64,000 bases of DNA from Escherichia coli (lineage in GTDB: Bacteria; Pseudomonadota; Gammaproteobacteria; Enterobacterales; Enterobacteriaceae), in the NCBI RefSeq assembly GCF_003790525.1, contig NZ_CP033635.1; one strand, 5' to 3'. The notes under the pieces were generated by a model. It was not told the DNA's origin and made no database searches. It saw only the letters and a program-made list of their open reading frames with translations. This document shows positions 31,193 through 32,738 of this stretch, one piece after another; the first letter of the stretch is position 1, and every line of letters starts with the position of its first letter. A program made the position numbers and the translations under genes.

Positions 31193-32128
31193 TTATTTCA
31201 CTTCAACCACATTCAGTCGTAACTCATCCAACTGATTTTCATCTTCTTCAGGCTGCCAACCCGCCGGTTGTAGAGGGATCTCTTCGCGATCAAACGCCAG
31301 ATCACCCCCGTTAACCACTTCAGAACCGTGGGTAATGCCTTTGAAATCGAACAGGTTGGTATCGCACAGATGCGATGGCACCACATTCTGCATCGCGCTG
31401 AACATCGTCTCGATACGCCCCGGATAACGTTTATCCCAGTCACGCAACATGTCAGCAATCACCTGACGTTGCAGGTTAGGCTGTGAACCGCACAGGTTGC
31501 ACGGAATAATCGGGAACGCTTTTGCATCGGCAAAGCGCTGAATATCTTTCTCGCGGCAGTAGGCCAGCGGGCGAATCACGATATGTTTGCCATCATCGCT
31601 CATCAGTTTCGGAGGCATACCTTTCATCTTGCCGCCGTAGAACATATTTAAGAACAGCGTTTGCAGGATATCGTCACGATGGTGACCCAACGCGATCTTC
31701 GTCGCCCCCAGTTCCGTTGCGGTGCGATAAAGGATACCGCGACGAAGACGAGAACACAGTGAGCAAGTGGTTTTGCCCTCCGGAATCTTCTCTTTCACGA
31801 TACCGTAAGTGTTCTCTTCCACAATCTTGTACTCAACGCCCAGCGTTTCAAGATACTCGGGCAGAACGTGTTCCGGAAAGCCCGGTTGTTTTTGATCGAG
31901 GTTAACAGCCACCAGCGAAAAATTGATTGGCGCGCTTTGCTGCAAATTGCGCAGAATTTCCAGCATGGTATAGCTGTCTTTACCCCCGGAGAGGCAAACC
32001 ATGATGCGATCGCCTTCTTCAATCATATTGAAGTCAGCAATGGCTTCGCCCACGTTACGACGCAGACGTTTTTGTAATTTGTTCAGATTGTATTGTTCTT
32101 TCTTACTAATTTCTTGATTTTGCGACAT
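31193..32128 (-). CDS. ttcA: tRNA 2-thiocytidine(32) synthetase (PP-loop ATPase)
   Basis: 311 aa; PP-loop CLSGGKDS; Cys-x-x-Cys pairs. Confidence 0.92.
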
Positions 32129-32271
32129 TTAAAAGCGACTCAATTCGTTATATGGCATCAGAAGAGTATGCGTCATGCCGGAACGCCCAGCATAAGAAAT
32201 CTGATATAAAAACTGTGGCGTGTATGGTACGGATTAGAGGGGAAAATGTCAGCACATTTGCGAAATGAATC

Positions 32272-32296
32272 AAAAAGCCCGCAGCAATGTGCGGGC
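32272..32296 (-). terminator. Rho-independent terminator of uspF
   Basis: GCCCGC / GCGGGC stem followed on minus strand by TTTTT. Confidence 0.6.
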
Positions 32297-32303
32297 GTTA
32301 GTG

Positions 32304-32738
32304 TCAGCGCACAACCAGCACGGAGCACTCTGCGTGACGCACTACAGCTGCGGCGTTAGAACCGAGCAGATAAGTGGTGATATCCGGTCGATGGGAAGCA
32401 ATGATGATCATATGAGCGGGGATCTTCTTCGCCAATTCCAGAATGCGGTCTTTGGGCGAGCCTTCCTCAACATGGACATGCACTCTGTCGGTTGGTAGTT
32501 TAAATTTTTTAATGATCTCTTCCAGTTGCGATTTGGCTTCCGCTTTCAGGTCATCCATTGCCGGTAATTCTGCGGAATACGCTAAACCCAGAGAGGCATA
32601 GTAGGGCAGTGAAGGTATTACCGTCAGGAAATGAACCTCTGCATCATCAATCTTTGCCTCTGCCTCAACGTGGCTAATCACGCGTTGAGTTAATTCTGAA
32701 TCGGAAATATCGATAGGGACAAGAATCGTTCTGTTCAT
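32304..32738 (-). CDS. uspF: Universal stress protein F
   Basis: 144 aa from [19 protein letters not shown]. Confidence 0.9.

Follow-up and report, generated by a model that had tools for sequence, protein, structure and literature searches.

The window analysed here, a stretch of 64,000 nucleotides (64 kb) from Escherichia coli (contig NZ_CP033635.1), contains the tRNA-modification gene ttcA and, directly upstream of it on the same strand, the stress-protein gene uspF. The features of this locus are:

31193-32128, minus strand: ttcA, tRNA 2-thiocytidine(32) synthetase, an open reading frame annotated as ttcA in E. coli SMS-3-5; 311 aa, with a native (non-phage) N-terminus, MSQNQEIS...
32129-32303: ttcA-uspF spacer, 175 bp, with the uspF terminator and the native sequence upstream of ttcA
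32224-32252, minus strand: candidate sigma-70 promoter of ttcA (CTGACA, 17-bp spacer, TACCAT), about 96 bp upstream of the ATG
32277-32296, minus strand: intrinsic terminator of uspF (terminator-like hairpin), inside the spacer and just 3' of the uspF stop codon
32304-32738, minus strand: uspF, universal stress protein F (Pfam Usp, E=4e-31; annotated as uspF in SMS-3-5), with bounds counted from the annotated ATG; the mechanical ORF extends to 32810

The predicted TtcA protein has a PP-loop domain (ATP_bind_3, PF01171 in Pfam) over residues 42-204 (E=2e-13, 50.9 bits against a cut-off of 27), and its SGGKDS motif at residues 47-52 is the PP-loop signature looked for in a tRNA C32 2-thiolase. 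The spacer upstream is 99% identical to the one between ttcC' and uspF in K-12. Its hairpin (GCCCGCA-CATTGC-TGCGGGC, then TTTTT) has a 7-bp stem with six G-C pairs and a 6-nt loop; no RNA family in Rfam matched within the 175 bp. A scan with the sigma-70 consensus gave two sites against 1.0 expected, which weakly favours the promoter candidate listed above, and the native ttcA promoter may perhaps lie in this spacer.

A preliminary description of the window had ttcA starting at 32128, followed after 175 bp by the uspF terminator and uspF, with no integrase or phage ORFs. This layout is borne out by the ORFs and by the annotation of SMS-3-5, in which the interval matching the window runs from ycjT to aldA and contains chromosomal genes only, with no integrase, phage or IS gene annotated. 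The distance of 175 bp is right if counted from the ttcA start to the uspF stop, but the terminator sits within the spacer, not beyond it. The upstream neighbour of ttcA is thus uspF, not intR: the marks of an occupied junction, intR/xisR within about 50 bp and an MQENQ... N-terminus, are both absent.

The window as a whole is collinear with K-12 MG1655 except at five points: Rac, IS5F, a 660-bp stretch, a feaR-ydbA replacement, and ompN. The IS5F of K-12 is absent from the ynaI-ynaJ junction of the window (17418-17421). About 660 bp at 11441-12102 have no K-12 counterpart, and an intact ORF for a 212-aa SDR-family oxidoreductase (11602-12240, minus strand) is found where K-12 has only ymjC and ymjD fragments. 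About 26.7 kb of K-12 (feaR-feaB-tynA-paaZ..paaY and an IS-interrupted ydbA) are replaced by about 5.3 kb at 43294-48603; the ORF at 43764-49718 (plus strand) encodes one intact BigA/YdbA-like autotransporter of 1,984 aa, with internal repeats around 44094-44444 at offsets that are multiples of 21 bp. The ompN allele (32879-33997, minus strand) has 63-86% identity to K-12 across the coding sequence and 98.5-100% in both flanks, a pattern suggestive of allelic replacement limited to the porin gene. This gene is labelled 'ompC' by PGAP at the corresponding position in SMS-3-5, and identity of at least 95% over 32300-34800 occurs in only about 43 of the 5,426 complete E. coli genomes from which all counts given here are drawn. 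The ABC ATP-binding gene ycjV, a pseudogene in K-12, is intact in the SMS-3-5 annotation (about 1605-2687 of the window). Three small RNAs reach Rfam gathering scores, FnrS (29309-29426, plus strand), MicC (34222-34342, plus strand) and McaS (25836-25931, minus strand), in the same relative positions as in K-12.

The Rac attachment core and the exchange interval

Comparison with the two ends of the Rac prophage in K-12 adds the following features inside the 5' part of ttcA, upstream of the PP-loop domain:

32078-32128, minus strand: first 17 codons of native ttcA, kept by K-12 23 kb away as the ttcC' pseudogene
32079-32104: Rac attachment core (attB), TTGTTCAGATTGTATTGTTCTTTCTT, 26 bp, ttcA codons 9-17
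32079-32086: probable strand-exchange interval, TTGTTCAG, codons L15 and N16 and two bases of K17
32087: A/G polymorphism at core position 9, synonymous (Asn14, AAT vs AAC); the window has the minority A

The core can be placed at 32079-32104 because alignment with both K-12 junctions leaves this shared 26-bp block, common to attL (NC_000913 1411899-1411924) and attR (1434959-1434984). The window matches it at 25 of 26 bases, the sole mismatch being the synonymous A at 32087. By megablast, window 27180-32121 corresponds to K-12 1407000-1411941, and window 32079-37103 to 1434959-1440000. The window site reads ...cgtttttgtaat TTGTTCAGATTGTATTGTTCTTTCTT actaatttcttgattttgcgacat..., while in the alignment K-12 attL has the same left flank as the window, then TTGTTCAGGTTGTATTGTTCTTTCTT, then tgtaatttgttgattttcttgcat..., and K-12 attR has ...gatttttgcccttac, the K-12 core, and then the same right flank as the window. 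In the three-way alignment the two bacterial arms, that of attL and that of attR, therefore meet in the window without any gain or loss of bases. The 64 kb contain a single copy of the core, where chance would give 0.00, and in the Rac-SA53 record (KU052037) the depositors' annotation places recombination sites on these 26 bp. In the K-12 RefSeq record the Rac feature (1411899-1434958) takes in the 5'-most 50 bp of the ttcA coding sequence (1411013-1411948, minus strand), and ttcC', 51 bp at 1434958-1435008, stands in front of uspF; a position of attL inside the ttcA coding region has been reported (Liu et al., 2015, Sci Rep 5:16074, PMC4632033).

The Rac-free state of the window is directly observed, in its collinearity with both junctions, the single core, the N-terminus identical to ttcC', and the lack of integrase and phage genes. 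There is little doubt that 32079-32104 is the unoccupied attB of Rac-family lambdoid prophages, which integrate by means of the tyrosine recombinase IntR. That IntR would use this particular site is a prediction, indirectly supported by natural lysogens (E. coli 042) whose attR keeps the allele seen here. The alignment with K-12 attL and attR that the preliminary description called for has thus located the core, at a junction that does adjoin the 5' region of ttcA, and together with the identity to ttcC' it upholds the proposed Rac-free arrangement with native N-terminus and upstream region. Two details need adjusting: Rac had been said to abut the 5' end of ttcA, which gives the right region for the junction, but recombination occurs inside the ORF, within codons 9-17; and the interval singled out, 32100-32310, covers the edge of the core, but most of the core falls just to its left.

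Where within the core does exchange take place? In Rac-SA53, attL and attR agree over only the first 15 core bp, with ATC (attL) vs TGT (attR) at positions 16-18. E. coli 042 is more informative on the left side of the core. Its attR consists of the P-arm followed by TTGTTCAG A TTGTAT TGT..., which is bacterial-type and the same as the window. The attL of this prophage has TTGTTCAG G TTGTAT ATC..., the phage form. Just outside core position 1, on its left, the two arms are already distinct, attR being phage and attL bacterial. Because the 042 arms differ on both sides of TTGTTCAG, strand exchange probably took place within it, which would put the exchange interval at 32079-32086, assuming no post-integration mutation or gene conversion in 042. 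The overlap regions of tyrosine recombinases are about 8 bp, matching the length of this interval. The window and the 042 lysogen together thus narrow the likely IntR exchange region to 8 bp. No clear dyad of inverted core-type binding sites was visible by eye around TTGTTCAG.

IntR itself has an Arm-DNA-bind_2 domain and a Phage_integrase (tyrosine-recombinase catalytic) domain in Pfam. Repeats of GGGGCAAA are candidates for arm-type IntR sites belonging to attP: of six copies in 33 kb of K-12, five are no more than 150 bp from one or other core and share one orientation, and they form clusters in both phage arms, at attL and at attR (4974-4992 and 27817-27854 of L001, the K-12 Rac excerpt). 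No GGGGCAAA cluster is present near the window core, as expected for a bare attB. A search of deposited phage genomes with the reconstructed K-12 attP gave no record covering at least 80% of it, and no free-phage attP; the best matches were prophage-derived records still carrying host ttcA, such as Rac-SA53 and vB_EcoS-683R6.

Distribution and history of the empty site

The uninterrupted site is found in 2,485-2,491 of the 5,426 genomes (about 46%), and a Rac-type intR in 2,919, of which 1,828 have it essentially full length and the rest mostly as a 283-bp 3' remnant; the empty-site and intR-positive sets are close to complementary. A K-12-like attR junction occurs in 1,866 genomes. The window has 99.989% identity to E. 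coli SMS-3-5 (NC_010498, about 1762634-1826633, reverse), with six mismatches and one gap over 64 kb; over a stretch of 24 kb, SMS-3-5 and some two dozen further genomes are 100% identical to the window. A query that fused a lineage-specific part of the window to the 5' 837 bp of intR matched at one place only in SMS-3-5, and likewise in each of the 25 others listed at 100.0%. Because there is only one such place in each, these chromosomes have, at the sensitivity of megablast, no Rac-type intR, which answers the earlier question of whether Rac might be carried elsewhere in such strains.

In many genomes ttcA and uspF are separated by a scar of about 2.3 kb (for example NZ_OZ040274.1 2640500-2647500; also E. 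coli 536, Nissle-type strains, F11, JJ1886 and IHE3034), made up of the 283-bp 3' intR fragment beside ttcA, a DUF1627 fragment and a frameshifted sitD fragment. In these genomes, roughly 950 by extrapolation from 7 of 40 evenly spaced rows, the original attR and the equivalent of window 32079-32231 are deleted, the match on the uspF side begins at 32232, and TtcA keeps the phage-type MQENQQIT. Such a scar is a possible explanation for the 'exception' that Liu et al. (2015, PMC4632033) noted in CFT073.

How the window came to have an empty site can be read in several ways. An origin of that kind, an imprecise prophage deletion of the sort that has left many phylogroup B2 strains with a grounded remnant or scar, has next to no probability here, however common the roughly 950 scarred genomes make it elsewhere: the window has no foreign DNA or missing bases, 31193-32738 contains no phage or integrase remnant, 32050-32140 matches more than 2,000 intact sites exactly or with one mismatch, and the N-terminus is native-type rather than the MQENQQIT of the scar strains. 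Base-for-base collinearity with the K-12 junctions refutes it. A different matter is whether the site was formerly occupied and then lost its prophage by precise IntR/XisR excision, so that the lineage would be cured, not never lysogenised. Precise excision of Rac is documented and gives back just this form of the sequence (PMC4632033), the site is likewise intact in K-12 AB1157, and the presence of the element or a remnant here in more than half of E. coli genomes indicates that the site is often visited. Precise excision is scarless, however, so the sequence gives no positive support to such a loss, and all of the roughly 26 closest genomes listed are empty and without intR. The A at 32087, bacterial-type and not the phage G, also speaks against it, but since the exchange point would lie to the left of this base, excision would restore the A anyway. 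Taken together, a cured lineage seems unlikely, though with a real share of the probability.

The A allele raises the further idea that it makes attB a poor substrate, so that the lineage resists Rac-type integration. The allele is indeed rare, the exact 91-bp attB being present in its A version in about 72 genomes and in its G version in about 2,058, among some 2,490 empty sites; position 32087 immediately adjoins the inferred exchange interval; and the attL and attR cores first examined all carried G. Against this, at least eight genomes (042 and at least seven others) contain a full Rac-like prophage with the A allele in attR, in an exact 98-bp match. The A in the 042-type attR means that an attB with this allele does undergo integration, and the roughly 2,058 empty sites with the G sequence imply that emptiness is independent of A. 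The 042-type lysogens lead to rejection of the A allele as a block to integration or a protection of the lineage, and resistance of this sort is very improbable.

The preferred reading is then simply an unoccupied Rac attB, and an empty Rac/ttcA site is already known and described in the literature. The finding has little weight alone, since the empty state of this prophage hot spot is textbook knowledge and the hot spot itself well described; the window site is usable as a clean reference attB for calling the boundaries of Rac-type prophages.

Consequences of integration for ttcA

Integration at this site is best explained as follows. The attP of a Rac-type phage carries a look-alike of the 5' end of ttcA, and strand exchange probably occurs inside TTGTTCAG (32079-32086). 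The host's first 14 ttcA codons and the upstream region are shifted to the far end of the prophage (as ttcC' in K-12), and ttcA then takes its start, an N-terminus that differs slightly, and its upstream sequence from phage DNA. In the window, with no such prophage in place, ttcA has its native N-terminus and a native spacer that leads directly into the uspF terminator. Because the core lies inside the ORF, the phage in lysogens supplies ttcA codons 1-14 and all of the upstream DNA.

Over residues 1-17 the window TtcA matches the K-12 ttcC' translation without a difference. Relative to the window, K-12 TtcA has S2Q, Q3E, E6Q and S8T in the part swapped by the phage, and also differs at residues 95 and 290. 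Rac excision has been reported to lead to four N-terminal amino-acid changes in TtcA, equal to the count between the window and K-12, and the Rac-free form, named TtcA', is taken as ancestral (Liu et al., 2015, PMC4632033). Phage-encoded N-termini vary: MQENQQIT in K-12, MQENQKNTKKEI (MQENQKNT) in 042 and Rac-SA53, and MQDNQQIT in HUM3355. The native N-terminus and upstream region of the window are those present in roughly 46% of sequenced E. coli.

Is expression of ttcA affected as well? In the lysogens K-12 and 042 only 51 bp separate the intR stop from the ttcA start, and a consensus scan found no sigma-70-like site in K-12 L001 4880-5400, which starts in the ttcA 5' end and extends into 3' intR. 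It may be, to judge from these sequences, that lysogens replace the ttcA promoter too, the native spacer being kept in the window. Taken further, lysogens would express ttcA from phage DNA and Rac-free strains from a native promoter in the spacer, so that about half of E. coli would have s2C32 modification controlled by the phage and the remainder would have it controlled natively, and TtcA would exist in at least three phage-dependent N-terminal isoforms. This extended proposal is speculative and, on balance, rather doubtful. If it were true, phage control of s2C32 would amount to read-through from intR/xisR, reported to be responsive to RpoS and H-NS.

Comparison with other attachment sites

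Rac-cured K-12 (the TtcA' form of Liu et al., 2015) and K-12 AB1157 are like the window in the gene concerned, the 26-bp core, the native N-terminus, and the spacer leading to uspF. In AB1157 the 91 bp around the core are one base from the window, with G at 32087 in place of the synonymous A. Both differ from the window in lineage, the window being SMS-3-5-like.

Occupied ttcA sites include Rac in K-12, the CP-933R/Sp10-type prophages of O157:H7, the Rac-like phage of 042, and Rac-SA53. They have the core and both bacterial arms in common with the window; unlike it, they have a prophage of 23-51 kb between two copies of the core, a phage-encoded TtcA N-terminus, and intR 51 bp upstream of ttcA. 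In E. coli 042 the Rac-like prophage at ttcA is 51 kb long and carries sitABCD. This iron/manganese transporter is cargo at the right end of Rac-like prophages, adjoining attR, in strains A10 and 042, and O157:H7 has an nleC pseudogene at the position where the A10 and 042 prophages carry sitABCD. In strain L1PEag1 (NZ_CP145513.1, L002 position 3698) an attP-like junction, consisting of P-arm, core (TTGTTCAGGTTGTACTGTTCTTTCTT) and P'-arm, is found inside the ttcA-uspF island, which suggests tandem or successive integrations of Rac-type elements; the same island carries cdtC (CDT type IV), an omptin gene and a hydrolase gene.

Other phages integrate inside a protein-coding gene, among them e14 in icd and Gifsy-1 in lepA (cited in PMC4632033). 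Compared on the basis of the literature, these are like the ttcA case in that a copy of the gene end in attP keeps the target intact, but at ttcA, unlike at icd and lepA, it is the 5' end that the phage replaces, that is, the start codon and the upstream region.
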